NCBI GenBank assembly: GCA_902769585.1
Contig: CACXPT010000024.1
Coordinates: 12,682-44,681 of the forward strand
Length of the DNA stretch: 32,000 bases
Direction: 5' to 3'
From: an uncultured bacterium
Lineage (GTDB): Bacteria; Verrucomicrobiota; Kiritimatiellia; RFP12; UBA1067
In this document: positions 1 through 9,000 of the stretch, piece by piece
Layout: each line of letters starts with the position of its first letter
Numbering within the stretch: position 1 is the first letter of the stretch
Program-made: the position numbers and the translations under genes
Notes under the pieces: model-generated
Seen by the model: only the letters and a program-made list of their open reading frames with translations
The model's database searches: none
Told to the model about the DNA's origin: nothing

Positions 1-2
1 GG

Positions 3-140
3 CATCACGATGTGCTGGCGCTGTGGATACCTGATACGCCGGAGTCGCCTACCGTGTGCGCCACGCGGGCGATGGCCGCGCGGCTCAAGGACGTGGAATA
101 TCCGTTGCGGTTGGTGGCGGACGGCAAGGTGGAGAAGTGA
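3..140 (+). CDS. 3' end of an upstream gene cut by the window edge; product unknown
   Basis: The frame is open from the window edge to TGA at 138-140 and reads ...HHDVLALWIPDTPESPTVCATRAMAARLKDVEYPLRLVADGKVEK*. Third-position G/C bias matches the neighbouring genes. The stop overlaps the Shine-Dalgarno of the next gene. It is too short for the ORF track, and no family was recognised. Confidence 0.4.
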   Translation, partial: HHDVLALWIPDTPESPTVCATRAMAARLKDVEYPLRLVADGKVEK

Positions 141-151
141 GGAGCTTGCGA

Positions 152-1021
152 ATGGTCAGCTGTGAAAACTTGGCGGCCCGTGCCAGCATGATGCGGACGA
201 TCCGCGCCTTCTTCGATTCGCGTGGATTCGTGGAGGTGGAGACTCCGGTGCGGATACCCGCTCCCGCGCCGGAACCGCACATAGATTGTCCGGCGAGCGG
301 AGATTGGTTCCTGCGCGCTTCGCCGGAGCTGCAGATGAAGCGTCTGCTCGCCGCCGGGCTTCCGCGCATCTACCAGATCGGACCATGCTTCCGAGAAGGC
401 GAGAGGGGAAGACGCCATGCGCCGGAGTTCACCATGCTCGAATGGTACCGCGCGGAGGCTGGGTACATGGAGATAGCGCGCGACATGGAGGAGCTTGTGG
501 GCGAGGTCCTGCAAGCGCGCTGGGGCGCGTCGGGGCCGCAGCCGTTCGCGTGGATCACGGTCCGCGAGGCGTATCGGCGGTGGGCGGGCTGGGATCCGGT
601 AGAGGAATGGGACCAGGACCGCTTCGACTTCGACATGGCCACCAAGATAGAACCGAATCTTCCGAAGGAGCCGCTGTTCCTTGCAGACTATCCCGCGCCT
701 GCCGCGTCGCTCTCGAAGCTGAAGGAGGGTGATCCGCGAGTGGCGGAACGCTGGGAACTGTACGTCGACGGAATGGAGCTCGCGAACGCGTTCACTGAGC
801 TGACGGATGCCGCCGAGCAGCGGCGGCGCTTCGAGGCCGCGCGCGAGGAGAGGCGTGCCCTCGGCGAGGCCGACTATCCGCTCGACGAGGAATTCCTCGC
901 GGATCTGCAGCGCATGCCGCCAGCCGGCGGCGTGGCGCTTGGGGTGGACCGTCTCGCGATGCTCGCGTGCGGGGCTGCCTCCATCGACGAGGTCAGGGAT
1001 ATGATATACTACCGCAAATGA
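152..1021 (+). CDS. epmA: EF-P--(R)-beta-lysine ligase (GenX/PoxA-type class II lysyl-tRNA synthetase paralogue)
   Basis: This is ORF 56..1021 with the start moved to ATG 152, which has GAGGAG at 139-144; the 5' extension overlaps the previous gene. It carries class II aaRS motif 2 (FREGERGRRHAPEFTMLEWY) and motif 3 (GVALGVDRLAML). There is no anticodon-binding domain and the protein is about 290 aa. Confidence 0.85.
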   Translation: MVSCENLAARASMMRTIRAFFDSRGFVEVETPVRIPAPAPEPHIDCPASGDWFLRASPELQMKRLLAAGLPRIYQIGPCFREGERGRRHAPEFTMLEWYRAEAGYMEIARDMEELVGEVLQARWGASGPQPFAWITVREAYRRWAGWDPVEEWDQDRFDFDMATKIEPNLPKEPLFLADYPAPAASLSKLKEGDPRVAERWELYVDGMELANAFTELTDAAEQRRRFEAAREERRALGEADYPLDEEFLADLQRMPPAGGVALGVDRLAMLACGAASIDEVRDMIYYRK

Positions 1022-1053
1022 CAAGAATCTTTCTTGAAGGAGCTTTATAAAAA

Positions 1054-2790
1054 ATGAACTTGCGTAGCAAATGGGAATTCGGAGAGGCGCGCGAGTGCCG
1101 CCGCGGTCTGCTGTGCGGCATGGGCATCAGTCCGGAGGAGCAGGCGCGTCCGCTCATCGGCATCGTCAACAGCTGGAACGAGTACAACCCCGGCCACGTG
1201 CATTTGAAGGCGCTCGCGGAGCGCGTGAAGCAGGGCGTGCGCGACGCGGGCGGCTTCCCCGTGGAGGTGATGACCACCGGCATCTGCGACGGCATGGTGC
1301 TGAAGGACCCGAAGTACGTGGAGATCCCCTCGCGCAACTCGATCGCCGACCAGGTGGAGATCACCGCCGAGGGCAACTTCTTCGACGGCATGGTGATGCT
1401 CTCTACGTGCGACTCCATCGTGCCCGGACACCTGATGGCGGCGGCGCGGCTCGACATCCCGACCGTGGTGGTGACGGGCGGCTACATGCCGCTCGGCACG
1501 TTCCGCGGACGCGAGGTGCTGCACATTCACGCGCAGGACAAGGTAGGCACGATGAAGGCCGGGAAGATCGACCCAGACGAGTACAACGGCCTCATCGAGC
1601 ACTCCTGGGGCACGTGCGGCGGGTGCACCTCGATGACGACGGCCAACTCCATGTGCATGGTTGCCGAGGCGCTCGGAATGTCGCTCCCCGGCAACTCCAC
1701 CGTGAGCGCCGTCTCGAGCGAGCTCGCCCTCATCGCTTACCGCGCCGGCGAGCGCGTGATGGCGCTCGTGAAGGATGGGATCACGGCGCGGAAGATCATC
1801 ACGCCCGCCTCGATCCGCAACGCGATCAAGATGGACATGGCGGTGGCGGCGAGCTCGAACCTCATCCTCCACATCCCGGCCATCGCGCACGAGGCCGGCT
1901 ACGACGAGCCGTGGTGGAAGTACTTCGACGAGGCGTCGAACGAGATCCCGCTCCTCGCGCACCTCGCGCCGAGCGGTCCGTACAATTTGCATGATCTCGA
2001 CCTCGCGGGCGGGCTGCCGGCCGTGTTGAAGGAACTGCTGCCGAAGCTCGACGGCGACTGCCTCACTGTGACCGGCAAGACCCTCGCCGAGAACGTTGCG
2101 GGTGCGCGGCGGTACCCGATTTCCGGCGCGGGGCGCGCCGGAAACGTTTGCGGTGCCGCTGGGGACAACGTTTGCGGCGCGCCCCGCGCCGCATCAGAGA
2201 ATGTGATCCACACGCTGGCGGAGCCGGTGATGCGCAAGCCAGGCATCGGCGTCCTCTACGGCAACCTCGCGCCGGAGGGGGCGATCATCAAGATCGCCGC
2301 CGTGCCCGAGCACCTTTTCACGTTCACGGGTCCCGCGCGCGTGTTCGACTCGCTCCATGCCGCGCTCGACGCGCTGCGCGCGGGCGAGGTGAAACCGGGC
2401 GACGCGTGCGTGCTGCGCTTCATGGGACTCAAGGGACGCTTCGGCACGACGGCGTTCACGTTCCAGGAGGAGCTGAAGGGGCACGCCGAGCTGTACAACT
2501 CCTGCGCCGTGATCACGGACGGACGCTTCTCGGGCGGCACTTCGGGCCTCTCGGTGGGATACGTCTCGCCCGAAGCCGCGCTGGTGGGTCCGCTCGGCCT
2601 TGTGAAGGACGGCGACACGATCGTGATCGACATCCCGAACCGACGCATCGACATGCAGGTGGACGATGCGGAACTCGCGCGGCGCAAGGCGTCGTTCAGC
2701 TGGACGTTCGACGAATCGGCCTATCCGCGCTACCTGCGCCTCTTCGTGAAGAACGTCGGGTCGATGGCCCACGGCGGAATCTGGGAATAG
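1054..2790 (+). CDS. ilvD: IlvD/Edd family dehydratase (dihydroxy-acid or sugar-acid dehydratase) carrying an in-frame repeat insertion
   Basis: The ORF is 578 aa with GAAGGAG at 1036-1042. Family motifs present: [34 protein letters not shown] and [22 protein letters not shown]. The segment [25 protein letters not shown] (about 2122-2196) is encoded by the palindromic repeat rather than by family sequence. Confidence 0.88.
2121..2195. repeat. REPIN-like inverted doublet of the 19-nt GC-rich palindromic core, inside the IlvD/Edd CDS
   Basis: The forward core CCGGCGCGGGGCGCGCCGG lies at 2123-2141 and the inverted core GCGGCGCGCCCCGCGCCGC at 2174-2192. The 16-nt arms 2124-2139 and 2176-2191 are exact reverse complements. 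The spacer contains a duplicated AACGTTTGCGG. Confidence 0.9.
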
Positions 2791-2837
2791 AGAAGAGTGG
2801 ATAGTGAAGAGTGAATAGGTAAAAAGAAGAACGAGAG

Positions 2838-4090
2838 ATGATGAACACAAGAAGGCAGTTTCTGCAGTTTGCGGGTGGGGGATTTGCGGCCGCATGGGCG
2901 ACATTTCATGCGCGGGCGCTCGCCGACGTGGCGGCGCCGCGTCCGCCGCTGCGCCTCGGCGTGGTGAGCGACATCCACATCCGCAACAACGGCAAGACGG
3001 AGAACGGCTACGTCGCCGGCTCCACCGGCACGTTCCGCGCCGCCCTGGAGTATTTCCGCGAGCGCCGCGTGGACGCCGTGGTGATCGCCGGCGACATGGC
3101 CGACACCGGAAAGATGTCCGAGCTGGACCGCGTGGGACAGGTCTGGCGCGAGGTGTTCCCCGACTGCAAAGGGTTGGACGGCGCGCGCGTGGAGCCGATC
3201 TTCGTGTACGGCAACCACGACCGCCTCGCGTGGAAGTGGCCCCTGCGGGGGGCGGCCGCCAAGGATCCCGAGAAGGTCGCATACGAGAAGGACATCCCGG
3301 CATACGCCGCCGCGCACGCGGCCGAGCTCGACCTGCACGGGCCGCGTCCGTTCTTCTGCGTGCAGCACCCGCATCCGAAGGGGACGCTCTTCAGCTACTG
3401 GGGCAAGGGGGCCTCACCGACGACCGTTCCGTGTGGCAGGGCGCGTTCACGGCCGTCAACACGTGCACGCTACTGCAGATCTCGACGCCCTACGGCGGCG
3501 AGTGGCAGTGCGTGAATTCGCGCCGCAAGGACACGAGCCAGGCCCGTCACATGGGTGCGACGAGCCGCAAGGGACGTCAGGGCATGGTGATGGACGTGTG
3601 GCCCGACCGGCTGGAGATCGAGCGGCGCGAGTTCGCGCTCGGCGAGGTGGCGGGGCCAGTGCGTACGGTGCCGGTACCAGCAAATCCGGCGAATCCCGTC
3701 TATGGCTACGCCGCGCAGGCCGCGCGGACCAGTGCGCCGAAGTTCCCTGTGGGCGCGGCGGTGTCTGTGACGCGTCAGCGTGGTCAGAACACGAAGAAGG
3801 AGATGGAGGACCAGATCGTGGTCGAGTTCCCCTCCGCGTGCGCCGGCGGCGAGAAAGGCCGCGTGCTGCTCTATGAAATCCGTGCGCTCGTGGAAGAACG
3901 CGAGGTGGGCATGTGGAGGCTGGCGCAGGAACTCCACTTCCATCCGCTTGGGCGCGTGCCGACGTCCTCGCGCCTGGTGATCGGCGCAGACGAGGTGCCT
4001 GCGGGCGCGGTGACGTTCCGCGTGACGCCAGTCGGGTTCTTCCACAAAGGCGAACCGATCAAAGGCACGTTGCAGGCGAAGCGATCGTGA
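2838..4090 (+). pseudogene. Tat-signal metallophosphoesterase (calcineurin-like), frameshifted at a G5 run
   Basis: The N-terminal part is ORF 2838..3515: RRQFLQF twin-arginine signal, then VVSDIHI, AGDMAD, VYGNHD and VQHPHPKG motifs. It continues in the frame of ORF 2894..4090 (LTDDRSVWQGAFTAVN...GMVMDVWPDRLEIERREF). The switch is at GGGGG 3407-3411. Adding one G gives ...SYWGKGGLTDDRSVWQG.... No GHxH motif was seen. Confidence 0.7.
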
Positions 4091-6069
4091 GTGACGTGTT
4101 GGTCATCGGCGGCGGACTGGCCGGGTGGCGCGCGGCGGAGGCCGCCGTGGCGTCGGGTTGTTCCGTGACGCTGGTCGCCAACGGGTCGGGCAATTCGCCG
4201 GAGATCCACGCGCTCAATGTGCCGGTGGGGCCGGGCGACTCGGTGGAGCTGTTCGTCGAGGACACACTGAAGAGCGGTGGCGGCTCGTGCGATCCAGCGC
4301 TGGTGGAGGTGCTGTGCCGCGAGTCGGTGAAGCTGGCGGACGAGTTTCCGTTCGACCGCAACGCCGACGGATCGTACAAGATGATCCAGCCGCTTGGCTG
4401 CAGCGTGCCGCGTTGCGTCTCGATCGACCACAAGATCGGCGCGTGGGCGCTTGCAAAGATCAAGCGCGCACTCGTCGGGAAGGTCGAGGTGGTGGAAGGG
4501 CGCGTGACCGGGCTGGAGGCGGGAGGAACCGGCGCGGGGCGCGCCGGTAACGTTTGCGGCGCGCCTCGCGCCGCAATTTCACCTCCGCATCCGTTCTTCC
4601 CGGGTCGAGATTATTTCATGCTTTCCCTTGTCAATGTCTCGCGGGGTGAACATGTCGACTATTGGGAACTTCCAAATTGCGTTTATCACGTATGTTTTCG
4701 CCTCGCCGATTCCGTCGCTGTGTCCGTAAGGCGCGCATGGTCAGACGAACGCGAGGAGTTGGAAGCTCGTCGACGTGGGGAAGGGCCTCCGCTAAGCGAG
4801 GAAGAGTATCGTTCGCTTTTGGGATTACTGTCAGAGAAGATCGGGAGTTACCTCGATGCAGGGAATGGCTCATGCCTTTTGGCTCGGACTGGGATTGCAG
4901 ATTGGTTGCGTGATGCGATTTTCAACGATGATGGTTTAAGGTATGTCATTCACGCCGTTGGGATCATGCCAAACCATGTGCATGTCATCGTCCAGCCGTT
5001 GGAAGGCTTTCGCTTGCGGGAGATCGTCCGGCAGTGGAAGGGGATTAGTGCACACGCAATCAACAAGGTGTTGGGGCGCTCCGGGAAGGTCTGGATGGGC
5101 GATTTTTACAATCGGATCATTCGCGATGCCGATGAATATGCCAATCAGGTGGAATACGTGTTTGGGAATGACATGGTCTCGGCGTGGAAGAGGTCCGATC
5201 CGGCGCGGGGCGCGCCGGAAACGTGTGGGGTGGTGCCGGCGCGGGGCGCGCCGGAAACGTGTGGGGTGGTGCCGGCGCGGGGCGCGCCGGGAACGTTTGC
5301 GGCGCGCCTCGCGCCGCAAAAGGGAGCGGCGGAACGTTGCCTTTTTGCTCGTGCCGTTGTGTTGGCGACGGGCGGATGGTGTGGGAAGTACGCCTTCAGC
5401 GACAATCCGCCGGAACTGCGCGGGGATGGCATCGCGCTCGCGCAGTCGCTCGGCGCGGCGGTGCGCGACCTGGACGCCGTGCAGTACGAACCGACCGTCG
5501 CGCTCGCGCCGGCGCGATTGCGCGGCATCCCCGTGATCACCACGATGCTCCACGAGGGTGCGACCTTTCGCAATTGCTTCGGCAAGGAATTCCTGCCGGA
5601 CAAGCACGCCAACAAGGACGCGATCTCGCGGGCGATCCGCAGTGAGATCGAGGCTGGACGTGGTGTTCCGGCGCGGGGCGCGCCGGAAACGTGTGTGGGG
5701 AAGCCGGCGCGGGGCGCGCCGGAAACGTGCGGTGTCTGGTACGATGCCACTGGCGTGCCGCGCGAGATTCTCGAAACCCGCTATGCGGACACCGTGCGGC
5801 GCTACGCGGCGTGCGGCGTCGACATCACGCGCGAGCCGATGCTCGTGGCGCCTGCGCCTCACACATCGCTTGGCGGCGTCGTCATCGACGCGCGATGCCG
5901 CGTGCTGCGTGCGGACAGCACGCCCGTCCCCGGCCTCTTCGCCGCCGGCGAGGTGACGGGTGGCGTGCATGGCCGCAACCGCGTGGGCGGCAACGCAGGC
6001 ACGGAAGTTCTTGTGTTCGGTCGAATCGCGGGCGAGTCTGCGGCGCAATACGGGAAGCGGCCTCAATGA
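4087..6069 (+). CDS. FAD-dependent oxidoreductase (NadB/SdhA/FrdA flavoprotein-like), interrupted in-frame by three repeat/transposase insertions
   Basis: The start is GTG 4087, overlapping the upstream TGA (GTGA). The Rossmann motif is DVLVIGGGLAGWRAAEAA. AVVLATGG is present. The C-terminal signature is GLFAAGEVTGGVHGRNRVGGNAGTEVLVFGRIAG. The host-like segments 4087-4527, about 5335-5667 and 5740-6069 are all in one frame with the inserts. The 3' end overlaps the convergent RND gene by 7 nt. Confidence 0.75.
   Translation: MSDVLVIGGGLAGWRAAEAAVASGCSVTLVANGSGNSPEIHALNVPVGPGDSVELFVEDTLKSGGGSCDPALVEVLCRESVKLADEFPFDRNADGSYKMIQPLGCSVPRCVSIDHKIGAWALAKIKRALVGKVEVVEGRVTGLEAGGTGAGRAGNVCGAPRAAISPPHPFFPGRDYFMLSLVNVSRGEHVDYWELPNCVYHVCFRLADSVAVSVRRAWSDEREELEARRRGEGPPLSEEEYRSLLGLLSEKIGSYLDAGNGSCLLARTGIADWLRDAIFNDDGLRYVIHAVGIMPNHVHVIVQPLEGFRLREIVRQWKGISAHAINKVLGRSGKVWMGDFYNRIIRDADEYANQVEYVFGNDMVSAWKRSDPARGAPETCGVVPARGAPETCGVVPARGAPGTFAARLAPQKGAAERCLFARAVVLATGGWCGKYAFSDNPPELRGDGIALAQSLGAAVRDLDAVQYEPTVALAPARLRGIPVITTMLHEGATFRNCFGKEFLPDKHANKDAISRAIRSEIEAGRGVPARGAPETCVGKPARGAPETCGVWYDATGVPREILETRYADTVRRYAACGVDITREPMLVAPAPHTSLGGVVIDARCRVLRADSTPVPGLFAAGEVTGGVHGRNRVGGNAGTEVLVFGRIAGESAAQYGKRPQ
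4529..4574. repeat. REPIN-like hairpin (forward plus inverted core) flanking the transposase module on the left
   Basis: The forward core CCGGCGCGGGGCGCGCCGG lies at 4529-4547, the spacer TAACGTTT at 4548-4555, and the inverted core GCGGCGCGCCTCGCGCCGC at 4556-4574. The inverted core has one C-to-T mismatch to a perfect palindrome. Confidence 0.9.
4618..5199 (+). CDS. REP-associated tyrosine transposase (RAYT; IS200-like HUH/Y1) module, in-frame with the host ORF and lacking its own stop codon
   Basis: It starts at ATG 4618. The first strand is VYHVCFRL. The HUH motif is IMPNHVHVIV. The catalytic-Tyr region is VWMGDFYNRIIRDADEYANQVEYVFGND, comparable to E. coli RayT WQPRFWEHAIRNTKDYRHHVDYIYINP. 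GC content is visibly lower than in the flanks. Repeat cores flank it on both sides. The coding frame runs straight into the repeats at 5200. Confidence 0.8.
5200..5317. repeat. Repeat cluster: two identical 36-nt direct units followed by a full REPIN-like hairpin
   Basis: Segments 5200-5235 and 5236-5271 are both CCGGCGCGGGGCGCGCCGGAAACGTGTGGGGTGGTG, and each translates as [13 protein letters not shown] forward core follows at 5272-5290, then GAACGTTT, then the inverted core at 5299-5317. Confidence 0.92.
5668..5739. repeat. Two direct 36-nt repeat units inside the flavoprotein CDS (third insertion site)
   Basis: Perfect forward cores lie at 5668-5686 and 5704-5722. The units translate as [12 protein letters not shown] and [12 protein letters not shown]. 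The total is 72 nt, or 24 codons. Confidence 0.9.
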
Positions 6070-9000
6070 AGACGGCGAATCAGTTCGCGTAGTCGCTGGA
6101 AGATGGCGTAGAGGCCGGGGGTGAAGCAGATGCCTACGAAGGTGGCGGCGAGCATTCCCGAGAAGGTGGAGATGCCGATCGCCTTCTGCGAGCCCGCGCC
6201 TGCGCCTGAGGCGAGGACGAGCGGCAGGACGCCGCAGAGGAAGCTCCATGCCGTCATCTGCACGGCGCGGAAGCGGAGGTCCGCGCCCTTCATCGCGGCG
6301 TCCGTCACGGATAGGCCCGTATCGCGCTGCTGCTTGGCGAACTCGACCATGAGGATCGCGTTCTTTGCGGAGAGGCCGATCAGCATCACCATGCCGAGCT
6401 GCGCGTAGATGCTCATCGGCGTGCCTGTGACCCATAGCCCCACGTACGCGCCGCCGAGCGCGAAGAGGATGGAGCACATCACGGAGAGCGGTACGGTCCA
6501 GCTTTCGTACTGCGCCACCAGGAAGAGGTAGGCGAAGAGCGCCGCCATGCCCATCAGGAATCCGAGCCGGCCCTCGTTCTCCTTCTCCTGTCTACTCATC
6601 TCGCTCCACTCTATGTGGTATCCCTCTGGCGGCGTAAGCTTCTCGATGGCCTTTATGAGAGTGAGCCCTGCGACTCCAGGTGCGGCCTGCGCATTGAGGC
6701 TTGCGGACGGCATCTTGTCGAAGCGCGTCACCTGCTTGGGGCCGACCTCGTAGGTGATGTTCGCGATGGCCGAGAGCGGTACGGACGCGCCGCTCGCTGT
6801 CGTAACATGGAGGTCCGCGACATCCTCCACCGAAGCGCGGTACGAGCCGGCAGACTGCACGATCACCTCGTACGCGCTACCGCCGAGCGTGAAGTCGTTC
6901 ACGTACACGCTCGCGAGCTTGTTCTGGAGCATGGCGAAGACTGCGCTTGGCGAGACGCCGAGGATCTCGGCCTTCCTGCGGTCGAGGGTAAGGCGTAGCT
7001 GTGGGGTGTCCGCGCGGAAGGTGTTCATCACCATGGCCGCCTCTGGAAGGGCGGAGACCTGACGAGCGAACTTCTCGGCGGTTGCGGCAAGTTCGGCGCT
7101 CGTGGCACCTGCGTCGGAGCAGAGGTTGAAGCCCACGCCGCCCACGCGGCCGAGACCCATGATGGGGGGTGATGTGAAGCAGCGGATGCGCGCGGCGTGG
7201 ACGTCCGCCGTGCGGCGCATGATCTCGGCGATGATCGCCTTGACGGACTTGTCGGGCGTGCGGCGCATGTCCCAGTGGTCCAGCGCCACCATGCCCTGTC
7301 CACAGTTCTCGCCGGAGCCTGACATGGCGCCAGAGCCAGACATGAGCATGATGCCGGCGATTCCGGGGATGTCCTTGATGCGCGCCTGGATGTCCTCCAG
7401 CACCTGGTTGGTGCGCTTGAGTGTTGCGCCCTGGGCGAGTTCGATGTCGATGGTGATGTTGCCCTTGTCCTCGTCCGGCAGCAGCGTCTCCTTCACCATG
7501 TCCTTCGCGAACCACACGCCGGCGCATGCGGCGGCGAAGAGAAGCGCCGTCACGATGCCGCGCCGCACGAGCAGTCCTGCGACCGCGAGGTATACCTTGC
7601 GGGAGCCGTCGATCGCGATGTTGACGGGCGCGAACAGACGGGATGGCTTGCCGGGCTTGCGCAGGAGGAGCGAGCAGAGTACTGGGGAGAGGGTGAGCGC
7701 CACGCATGTGGAGAGCGAGAGGGCCACGCACATCGTGAACGCGAACTGGATGTACATCTTGCCGACCATGCCGCCGTAGAAGACGAGCGGGATGTAGCAG
7801 GCTATGGTCACGAGCGTGGTGGCGATGACGGCGCTGGTGATCTGGCGCATGGACTTCTTTGCGGCCTCCTTCGCGGAAAGCCCTTCCGTAGCCATGAGGG
7901 TCTGGGTGTTCTCCACCACTACGATGGCGTCGTCCACGAGCGAGCCAATCACGAGGATGAGACCGAACATCGTGAGGATGTTGATCGTGTAGCCGAACGC
8001 CCACACGAAGATGAAAGTTGCGAGCAGCGATACCGGGATGGCGGCGGCAGGGACGATGGTGGCGCGCCAGTCCTGCAGGAAGAGCCAGGTGATCAGCACG
8101 ACGAGGCCGAGTGCCATGAAGAGGGTGGAGACGATCGCCTTCATGAAGACGAGCGTGAACGCGGTCGCGTCGTGCACGGTCTCCATCTCCACGCCTGCGG
8201 GGAGGCGCTTGTCCCATTCAGCCAGCTCAGCCTTCACGCGCTTGACCACGGCGAGGGCATTCGCCTCTGGCGTCTTGTACACGGAGAGGACGATCGCCTC
8301 CTTGCCGTTCATGAGCGACTTGCCGGAATAGCTCTTCGAGCCGAGCTCGATGCGCGCCACGTCGCCGAGCAGCACCTGTCCGCCGGTGGCTGGGTCGCTG
8401 CGGACGACAATGTCGGCGAACTCGTCGGCGGATTTCAGCCGGCCTTCGGCGTTGAGCTTGTAGGAGAGGTAGCGGCTCGCGTACTCGCTGCCGACCGTGC
8501 CGGCGGCGGCCTGGACGTTCTGCTTCTCGATGGCGGAGGAGACATCGGTGATAGAGAGGTTGAGCGAGGCCATGCGCACTGGGTCGAGCCAGATGCGCAT
8601 CGCGTACTCGCGCGAGGCCATCACTTCTGCGACGGAGACGCCATCGAGGCGCATGACCGCTTCCTTTATGTTCTTCTCCACGTAGTCGCCGAGCTGCTGG
8701 AGGGACTGCTTGGTGCCGTCCGTGGTGAAGGCCCAGAGGGCGAGCATGTCCGAGTTGCGCTTCTGGACGGAGATGCCCTGTTGCTTGACGGTGGAGGGGA
8801 GCTTGCGCTCGGCGCGCTTCACGGCGTTCTGTAGGTTGACGAGCGCCATGTCGGTGTCGGCGCCGCTCTTGAACGTGACGGAGCAGGAGTAGCTGCCGTT
8901 GTTGTCGCAGGAAGACGAGTAGTAGAGGAGGTTCTCCACGCCGTTGATCTGGTCCTCCACGGGGATGGCGATGGAATCGGCGACGACCTGCGCGCTAGCG

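Follow-up and report, generated by a model that had tools for sequence, protein, structure and literature searches.

In the genome of a rumen Kiritimatiellae bacterium, a hairpin repeat is read in-frame within a gene of the IlvD/Edd dehydratase family. The stretch of DNA analysed here (the window) comprises 32,000 nucleotides of contig CACXPT010000024.1, and the repeat occupies positions 2121-2195 of it. We consider it probable that this element is a doublet of repetitive extragenic palindromic (REP) sequences with the architecture of a REPIN (REP doublet forming hairpins), that is, two inverted, GC-rich hairpin repeats of ~25 nt each; that it belongs to a family served by a REP-associated tyrosine transposase (RAYT); and that it represents a tolerated selfish insertion in a permissive linker, most likely of no use to the host. 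The observations that bear directly on this are the identity of the repeat with the sequences flanking a RAYT, which is encoded in the same window within a flavoprotein gene; the absence of the element in orthologues; a series of alleles at the insertion site; the position in the linker between two domains; and purifying selection on the host gene.

A palindromic element in the connecting loop of the dehydratase

The features of the host gene and of the element are given below; here and throughout, L-numbers denote related contigs or strains that were compared with the window.

1054..2790, + strand: IlvD/Edd-family dehydratase gene hosting the element, 578 aa (open reading frame (ORF) list, Pfam and NCBIfam)
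2107..2202, + strand: variable segment, codons 352-383 (RRYPI...SEN), standing in place of KVWNTD, six ancestral codons, with a net gain of 78 nt (DNA and protein alignments against the empty alleles L003 and L015 and the filled alleles L001, L002, L025 and L026)
2124..2148, + strand: forward REP unit, the left arm of the REPIN; stem CCGGCGCG, loop GGG, stem CGCGCCGG, tail AAACGTT (repeat and inverted-repeat search, fold of single-stranded DNA (ssDNA))
2149..2166, no strand: 18-nt spacer (loop) separating the REP arms (inverted-repeat pair, fold)
2167..2191, - strand: inverted REP unit, the right arm of the REPIN (inverted-repeat and core search)

The two inverted arms (2124-2148 and 2167-2191) are 25 nt long each and 96% complementary, with the 18-nt spacer between them. 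The original prediction, made from the sequence of the window alone, had described inverted cores with exactly complementary arms of 16 nt; the inverted cores are indeed present, while the exactly complementary core measures 17 nt (CGGCGCGGGGCGCGCCG). The repeat at 2121-2195 is far above shuffle expectation: the 29-nt REP has 6 matches in the window at up to 3 mismatches and none in 100 shuffles, and the 15-nt REP core (GGCGCGGGGCGCGCC) has 10 matches at up to 2 mismatches, whereas shuffles average 1.28 and never exceed 5. Folded as ssDNA, the element (81 nt) forms a single long hairpin of -41.2 kcal/mol (shuffles -23.0 +/- 2.4; z = -7.75), and a lone REP, taken as a 34-nt unit, still gives a stem-loop of -15.4 kcal/mol (z = -3.5); in its mRNA context (106 nt), the predicted RNA fold has an energy of -63.9 kcal/mol (z = -3.9). 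The ORF at 1054-2790 is continuous across the element. It had been pointed out that the repeat introduces neither a frameshift nor a stop codon, which is true; the element is open in all six frames, however, and the observation loses its evidential weight.

Both domains of the family are matched at full length in the host protein, ILVD_EDD_N (PF00920) at residues 32-347 (E 6.8e-108) and ILV_EDD_C (PF24877) at residues 383-574 (E 8.5e-55), and the insert lies between the end of the first and the start of the second, the differing residues being 352-383. Structure alignments break at the insert, at residues 399/407 of 6OVT, which is the top PDB match (E 6e-101), and at residues 360/362 of 6NTE. 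The IlvD/Edd fold is composed of two domains with a long connecting loop between them (PMC5770437); taking the Pfam and PDB alignments together with this published domain description, we place the insert in the inter-domain connecting loop, as far as can be judged from sequence. The surface loop envisaged in the original prediction thus finds its counterpart in the gap between the Pfam domains and the break in 6OVT, and we infer that the inserted peptide itself is a disordered surface loop. The connecting loop is known to tolerate insertions, since 6-phosphogluconate dehydratase carries an additional β-hairpin within it (PMC5770437).

The rest of the protein had been called an otherwise canonical IlvD/Edd dehydratase; this holds for the two full-length family domains, but neither for its model scores nor for one of its motifs. 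Its top NCBIfam matches are dihydroxy-acid dehydratase models, all below their cut-offs (TIGR00110, 522.5 vs 618; NF002068, 530.9 vs 644), which is mild evidence, as the 26-residue insert lowers the score somewhat. The family has two PROSITE motifs, C-D-K-x2-P-[GA] and T-D-[GA]-R-x-S, and the lysine of the first is carbamylated and binds Mg (PMC5770437). In the window protein a motif of the second type is present, while the first reads CDSIVPGH, with CDS at residues 119-121 (1408-1416) instead of the family's CDK; the replacement of the carbamylated, Mg-binding Lys by Ser is found in the window protein and in all 17 aligned close orthologues. The substrate and the metal site of this CDS-type clade may differ from those of the canonical enzymes. 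Because of the sub-cut-off scores and the CDS motif, the label of a central metabolic enzyme, which was also part of the original prediction, is unproven for this protein. On related contigs its neighbours are a short-chain dehydrogenase, a flavoprotein, an MBL-fold (metallo-β-lactamase-fold) protein, AllG and a sodium:solute symporter, and this neighbourhood suggests a sugar-acid or similar catabolic operon.

Between the window and L001, both of which carry the insert, the ratio of nonsynonymous to synonymous divergence (dN/dS) of the dehydratase gene is 0.023 at a dS of 0.30. Because this value is obtained between two filled alleles, the gene appears to stay functional with the insert in place, and it is under strong purifying selection.

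Presence and absence of the insert among orthologues

The closest orthologues are 552-aa proteins that are 98% identical outside the insert and lack the element; their site reads ENVASAKVWNTDVIHTL. A large majority of the 120 closest database proteins have a length of ~552 aa as well, and the other long ones that were aligned differ by N-terminal extensions only. At the DNA level, the filled allele has 96 nt (RRYPI...SEN) where the empty allele has 18 nt (KVWNTD), a net difference of +78 nt; from the insertion of ~75 nt that had been proposed, the in-frame palindromic repeat is retained, but not the notion of a clean 75-nt insertion.

An unbiased, DNA-level sample of metagenome loci has the short form in 78 out of 80 cases, so that the segment is absent not just from the nearest orthologues but from deeper ones too, in agreement with the lineage specificity that had been predicted. 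The site could be read directly in 27 of the 78, and these conform to A-x-V-[WY]-N/R-x-[DE] without exception, even where identity falls to ~74%; in the remaining 51, the length of the match served to infer absence. As 78 of the 80 loci are short and the motif is conserved in all 27 readable ones, the empty state is the ancestral one. We also considered precise excision as the source of empty alleles, and rejected it: empty alleles keep the widely conserved KVWNxD, which is lost from filled alleles. Related inserts with the left junction RRY[P/S] are also present in dehydratase genes that are just 86% and 78% identical, and the insertion is therefore old or recurrent, and not private to this strain.

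Repeats often cause breaks or false joins in short-read assemblies, the source is metagenome-assembled, and the neighbouring metallophosphoesterase gene has two deletions compared to sister contigs; a chimeric join induced by the repeat, at the stage of assembly or binning, might thus be suspected. Yet the identical 578-aa protein is found on two further ENA contigs from independent samples, and their insert-region DNA does not show any difference from that of the window. Eight further insert alleles come from other samples, and the codon-phase GC pattern is equal on either side of the insert. Since independent samples carry both the identical protein and identical insert DNA, we treat an artefact as excluded, the residual chance of one being minute.

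A series of in-frame alleles at one site

The 90%-identity cluster of the window protein holds nine sequences with five different lengths; extended with fetched DNA, the allele series is as follows.

Empty allele (L003, L015 and most others): 552 aa, no REP
Window allele (also L111 and L112): 578 aa, forward REP, spacer, inverted REP
L026: 581 aa, compact doublet and one inverted unit
L001: 589 aa, one additional inverted unit of 33 nt
L025: 590 aa, one additional forward unit of 36 nt
L055: +50 aa (partial gene), two additional inverted units
L002: 594 aa, forward unit and three inverted units, in a dehydratase only 86% identical
L024 (7021-7115): 563 aa, single copy of a GTAG-type REP
L027 (1804-1976): 589 aa, three copies of the GTAG-type REP
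L048 (2701-2810): 575 aa, degenerate 14-residue relic, ARRYSVSGRDVTDVARVDEEC, in a 78%-identical dehydratase

Related strains thus have at least nine length alleles at this site, every one of them in-frame, and the alleles differ by whole REP units of 33 or 36 nt; a comparison of strains and metagenome-assembled genomes (MAGs) for presence or absence of the insert, as suggested in the original prediction, finds both filled and empty sites. The second type of REP, GTAGGCAGGGCGCCCTCGCCCTGCC, is GTAG-tagged in L027 and has a degenerate GTGG in L024; it encodes the peptide VGRAPSPC and, among the retrieved loci, is found in these two dehydratase alleles only, behind the same RYP junction as the others. 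The fact that two REP superfamilies occupy one site suggests that a resident REP attracts further REPs.

Length polymorphism by whole units that stays in-frame in many strains, in an enzyme which is under strong purifying selection in its remaining parts, might mean that the peptide is adaptive, acting as a linker or surface patch of variable length through which the number of repeats would adjust oligomerisation, the binding of partners or the movement of the domains relative to each other. The peptide is, however, nothing but the REP read in one frame, while a different frame is used in the flavoprotein; moreover, an unrelated REP gives rise to the unrelated peptide VGRAPSPC at the very same site, and empty alleles dominate. 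An adaptive peptide seems to us very improbable.

The repeat family and its RAYT

All 10 REP cores of the 32-kb window are located within 2125-5720 (3.6 kb), where they form four groups: one in the dehydratase gene, one on each flank of the RAYT, and one at a further site in the flavoprotein gene. The features of this region are:

4087..6069, + strand: FAD_binding_2 flavoprotein gene that reads through the RAYT and three REP clusters, 660 aa (Pfam FAD_binding_2 and Y1_Tnp in a single ORF)
4531..4572, no strand: compact REP doublet on the left RAYT flank, forward and inverted units sharing AACGTT, translated (repeat searches; pLDDT (predicted local distance difference test) <50 at residues 148-164 of the fusion model)
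4618..5190, + strand: RAYT (Y1/HUH transposase) domain, 191 residues (Pfam, NCBIfam, motifs)
5202..5315, no strand: REP array on the right RAYT flank, three forward units with a 36-nt period and then one inverted unit (repeat searches)
5670..5720, + strand: two forward REPs in tandem, read in-frame within the flavoprotein's C-terminal half (absent in L002 and L003; single unit at the same site in L015)

The RAYT lies 2.4 kb downstream of the element in the dehydratase gene, and the REPs that bracket it form a REPtron arrangement. As the same, identical REP stands on both sides of the Y1_Tnp domain, the assignment of the dehydratase element to a RAYT-associated family, which the original prediction had made, is well supported. 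The Pfam model Y1_Tnp matches the RAYT with 30.5 bits (cut-off 23); the best NCBIfam model is REP_Tyr_transpos with 51.9 bits, below its cut-off of 80, and an IS200 model scores 22 bits. The RAYT has an HVH motif at 4975-4983 and a catalytic-type Tyr at 5107-5109, within FYNRIIRD, and both are kept in nearly all of the 18 fusion homologues described below. Some RAYT homologues with 31-41% identity, from Victivallales, Kiritimatiellae and Verrucomicrobia, are named RayT by the Joint Genome Institute (JGI).

The tag beside the stem of the window REP is ACGTTT (CGTT), and neither strand of the REP has GTAG or CGTC. When species-representative genomes were scanned, exact matches to the REP turned up in six rumen MAGs, whose labels are Kiritimatiellae, Lentisphaerae or uncultured, with 1-4 loci in each of these fragmentary MAGs. 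Several copies in related MAGs look intergenic and others are in-frame in genes, while in the window every copy is inside an ORF, with an equal codon-phase GC pattern on both sides.

The dehydratase is not the only host. Flavoprotein genes of different lineages have in-frame REPs at three sites. In L048 the flavoprotein (3429-4655) has no RAYT, and where the window carries the REP pair it has a degenerate insert of 22 residues; this second-site insert and the dehydratase insert of the same contig are both degenerate yet in-frame, which would fit a decay of the REPs after loss of the RAYT. The MBL-fold (Lactamase_B) gene 3' of the flavoprotein has in-frame REP arrays at several sites (L002, 5189-5275 and 5821-5877; L028, 3018-4511; L029, 7010-8014); two of the sites are common to L002 and L028 with differing REP content, further ones are lineage-specific, and the protein measures between 334 and 497 aa. 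In MAG RUG572 (L007, 5805-5819), the Era GTPase (Pfam MMR_HSR1 and KH_2) carries a single in-frame REP after its NKCD motif, again with an equal codon-phase GC pattern on either side.

Origin and persistence of the insert

Several observations weigh against our reading of the dehydratase element as a RAYT-served selfish insertion. The insertion is not a clean one, since the flanking codons differ between filled and empty alleles (RRYP... vs KVWNTD). The left junction CGGTAYCCG (CGCTACTCC in L048), which encodes RY[P/S], is common to all filled alleles, those with GTAG-type REPs included, and in a tree of the flanking gene the filled alleles are not monophyletic. The insert diverges by 5-7% between alleles whose synonymous divergence is ~0.3, making it ~4 times more conserved than neutral sites, which is at odds with a simply neutral insert. 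L024 has the insert, yet the genes called over the next 6 kb downstream of its dehydratase include neither a flavoprotein nor a RAYT, and in L028 and L029 the RAYT is present while the dehydratase site is empty; an adjoining RAYT is neither necessary nor sufficient. Finally, an AlphaFold model of the insert-bearing dehydratase, built from an 18-sequence alignment, is unusable, with a mean pLDDT of 42.7. The filled alleles may go back to a single old insertion that recombination has since distributed, or to several insertions at a hot spot; the junction that they have in common speaks for the former, at least at the level of the sequences compared. A strict coupling of the dehydratase insert to an adjoining RAYT was rejected on the basis of L024, L028 and L029.

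Alternatively, the site might be a coding minisatellite, in which one ancient insertion was followed by slippage and inter-strain recombination, the RAYT being uninvolved and its nearness either coincidental or a result of gene conversion from the flanks. Such an origin would agree with the one left junction across filled alleles, even in genes that are 78-86% identical, and with tandem-unit differences of the kind that slippage produces; the star-like shape of the gene tree is what recombination would produce, and inserts without an adjoining RAYT (L024) as well as RAYTs next to an empty site (L028 and L029) would pose no difficulty. It does not explain, however, why the repeat is the RAYT's own flanking REP, why it also occupies several other in-frame sites, independent of the first, both in adjoining genes and in the Era gene of a related MAG, which lies on a different contig, why a second REP family is found at the same site, or why REPs are degenerate where the RAYT is missing; and slippage is able to make neither the first copy nor the inverted arm. 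On balance, we regard the minisatellite as rather unlikely.

The low divergence of the insert is attributed here to homogenisation of the REPs, by the RAYT or by gene conversion; selection on the hairpin or the peptide fits as well. A selected hairpin would function at the nucleic-acid level, for example by pausing the ribosome at the domain boundary while the N-terminal Fe-S domain folds, by stabilising the mRNA or as a binding site. The very stable predicted fold, both as RNA and as ssDNA, is consistent with this, as are the location exactly at the domain junction and the ~4-fold higher conservation of the insert relative to synonymous sites. Against this, the element is missing from the closest relatives, 98% identical in protein, and from nearly all deeper orthologues, and the number of units, their spacing and even the REP family vary among alleles, which is a poor fit to one selected structure. 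Neither is there a compensatory pattern: a difference between G/C arms in the window and A/T arms in L001 was considered as a compensatory change and rejected, as the variable G/A base lies in the loop of the single REP and L026 mixes an A arm with G-type arms. A scan for terminators and promoters found none at the dehydratase element, and an Rfam scan of window positions 1-7000 gave no family, with nothing but far-sub-threshold microRNA look-alikes on the hairpins. A function of the hairpin thus appears improbable, and the effect of an mRNA hairpin on translation which had been proposed for the element is speculation.

Returning to the selfish insertion that we prefer, we suggest that a REP doublet entered the permissive inter-domain loop, or was built up in it, and has since been carried along without harm to the enzyme. 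Its in-frame persistence would have been eased by a REP that is free of stop codons in six frames, by unit lengths of 33 and 36 nt and by a loop that tolerates changes in length; selection would weed out copies that shift the frame, such that lengths which are multiples of three survive. Once occupied, the site may have acted as a landing pad for REPs, at which whole units were gained and lost and a GTAG-type REP could arrive. E. coli (Escherichia coli) TnpA-REP cleaves and rejoins ssDNA at REP hairpins in vitro, and this has been proposed as the source of variability in bacterial interspersed mosaic elements (BIMEs; PMC3333891). By analogy, we infer that the insertions and the changes in unit number go back to the RAYT, which would cut and re-ligate single-stranded DNA at the hairpins of its REPs, to replication slippage, or to the two together.

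A RAYT in-frame within a flavoprotein gene

A flavoprotein orthologue without RAYT has ~386 aa, compared to the 660 aa of the window protein. Database matches comprise the identical 660-aa protein (P0184) and 17 distinct fusions of 610-794 aa, with an overall identity of 54-92%, and in all of them the RAYT is positioned in the same β-hairpin of the FAD domain. The REP-encoded junction peptides of the fusions vary widely in length and in the frame in which the REP is read, and the ORF is open in each; as the fusions were found via called proteins, broken versions would escape detection. That diverged lineages (55-92% identical) have the RAYT at the same position of the host gene fits vertical descent. 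A comparison of the window with L110 gives dN/dS values of 0.20 in the N-terminal part of the flavoprotein, 0.07 (0.074) in the RAYT and 0.10 in the C-terminal part, at dS values of 0.25-0.48; all three parts are under purifying selection.

In an AlphaFold model of the fusion (75 sequences; mean pLDDT 79.8), both halves of the flavoprotein and the RAYT are predicted with confidence, the RAYT with a pLDDT of 86-97. The sole segments of at least 10 residues with a pLDDT below 50 are the REP-encoded ones, 148-164, 370-413 and 532-544, and in the model they look like linkers. A Foldseek search of this model against the PDB returned fumarate reductase and succinate dehydrogenase flavoproteins only, with the larger domain dominating the search.

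In L111, a close relative of the window, the array next to the RAYT is shorter by precisely one REP unit of 36 nt (window 5200-5235), and the protein has 648 instead of 660 aa. Since the two differ by ~25 single-nucleotide polymorphisms (SNPs) over 5 kb, this shows a very recent, frame-preserving gain or loss of a whole REP unit.

Taken together, we lean somewhat towards the view that the RAYT of this clade does not have a gene of its own but is kept by selection as an in-frame internal domain of the conserved flavoprotein, to which translated REP arrays connect it, that its REPs habitually settle in-frame in permissive loops of conserved genes near and far (of the IlvD/Edd dehydratase, the flavoprotein, the MBL-fold protein and Era), and that the hairpin in the dehydratase is one product of this. 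In the searchable literature we found no report of an in-frame RAYT, or of a transposase made only as part of a host enzyme; in one survey, overlong TnpA proteins were set aside, on the grounds of being 'gene fusions or annotation errors' (PMC6006769).

Comparison with known systems

The element shares much with the REP/REPIN-RAYT systems (Nunvar 2010, PMC2817692; Bertels and Rainey 2011, PMC3116915; Ton-Hoang 2012, PMC3333891): short GC-rich hairpins that form a larger hairpin when paired in inverted orientation, a repeat on both sides of a Y1/HUH gene (the REPtron), a copy number that varies among close strains, and repeats that degenerate where the RAYT is absent. In contrast to these systems, the copies near the RAYT are intragenic and in-frame and not extragenic, the tag is ACGTTT (CGTT) instead of GTAG or CGTC, the apparent copy number is low (1-4 exact-match loci per MAG), and the RAYT lies in-frame inside a flavoprotein gene and is without a gene of its own.

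The closest published precedent for the dehydratase element comes from Di Nocera et al. 2013, who described intragenic REPs in several species, among them Opitutus terrae, Thauera and Thioalkalivibrio; the majority occurred as dimers or groups with a coding capacity of 20-30 aa, some genes were hit twice, and replication and repair genes were enriched among the hosts (PMC3733652). Such REPs were most numerous in the verrucomicrobium O. terrae, which had the most intragenic GTAG repeats, and in R. conorii (Rickettsia conorii; PMC3733652). The hosts in our case differ, being genes of a sugar-acid-type operon (IlvD/Edd, flavoprotein and MBL-fold) and Era. With respect to the GTAG and CGTC superfamilies of that study, the window REP has neither tag, while the second REP of L027 is GTAG-tagged. 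The Verrucomicrobia and the Kiritimatiellae belong to the same superphylum, Planctomycetes-Verrucomicrobia-Chlamydiae (PVC).

A resemblance to the Rickettsia palindromic elements (RPEs) had been noted in the original prediction, and it holds insofar as RPEs, too, are palindromic repeats read in-frame in apparently functional genes; the in-frame habit is, however, not confined to Rickettsia, as it was found in several phyla in 2013 (PMC3733652). The units described here are ~25-36 nt long and occur in another phylum. RPE-1 measures ~100-150 bp. No cognate transposase is known for RPE-1, whereas the window REP has its cognate RAYT 2.4 kb away. By analogy, the dehydratase element would work like an RPE without being a member of the RPE family.

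Insertion sequences of the IS200/IS605 family are comparable in that a Y1 HUH transposase recognises sub-terminal hairpins and acts on single strands; their excision is seamless. Here, by contrast, no TnpB gene and no defined left and right ends with guide sequences were identified, and the mobile units are bare hairpins. As far as the nested RAYT is concerned, inteins with homing endonucleases present a parallel, as a DNA-acting enzyme that is encoded in-frame in a host gene, at a conserved site, and is present or absent among close relatives. Unlike in inteins, there is no evident sign of splicing domains or motifs, the RAYT is flanked by REP-encoded linkers of low model confidence, and it would remain an internal domain of the mature protein.

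Intragenic REP dimers are thus already published, and on its own the dehydratase element adds to a known type (PMC3733652). What goes beyond the precedent is the series of alleles at a single site, the occurrence of two REP superfamilies at that site, a tag that is neither GTAG nor CGTC, and the conserved in-frame RAYT. The element is a well-resolved addition to the short list of palindromic repeats that live in protein-coding genes, and its natural alleles display a hypervariable site in an enzyme which nonetheless stays under strong purifying selection. They also indicate that 11-50 additional residues can be accommodated in the linker between the domains of IlvD/Edd enzymes, something worth knowing in protein engineering.

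REPIN-RAYT systems have been discussed as replicators that are inherited vertically and may be beneficial, though how they are expressed and controlled is not understood. If the RAYT is translated solely within its host flavoprotein, the dosage of the transposase would be tied to a metabolic operon. The conserved fusion, with at least 18 diverged homologues, would then be a tractable system in which to study the expression and the role of RAYTs.

Neighbouring genes

The metallophosphoesterase gene at 2838-4090, between the dehydratase and the flavoprotein, is broken in the window, compared to an intact protein of 485 aa in L111 and L112. The window has a deletion of 126 nt near 3280 and another of 79 nt near 3408; two overlapping ORFs are seen, as the 79-nt deletion shifts the frame. 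The broken gene is either a pseudogene or an assembly error.

On the 3' side of the dehydratase, the adjoining gene varies among L001, L024, L026, L027 and L003, being a flavoprotein, an SDF transporter, a GCE_fung esterase or a metallophosphoesterase. As the downstream gene differs even among close strains, this side of the dehydratase gene represents a synteny breakpoint in the population.

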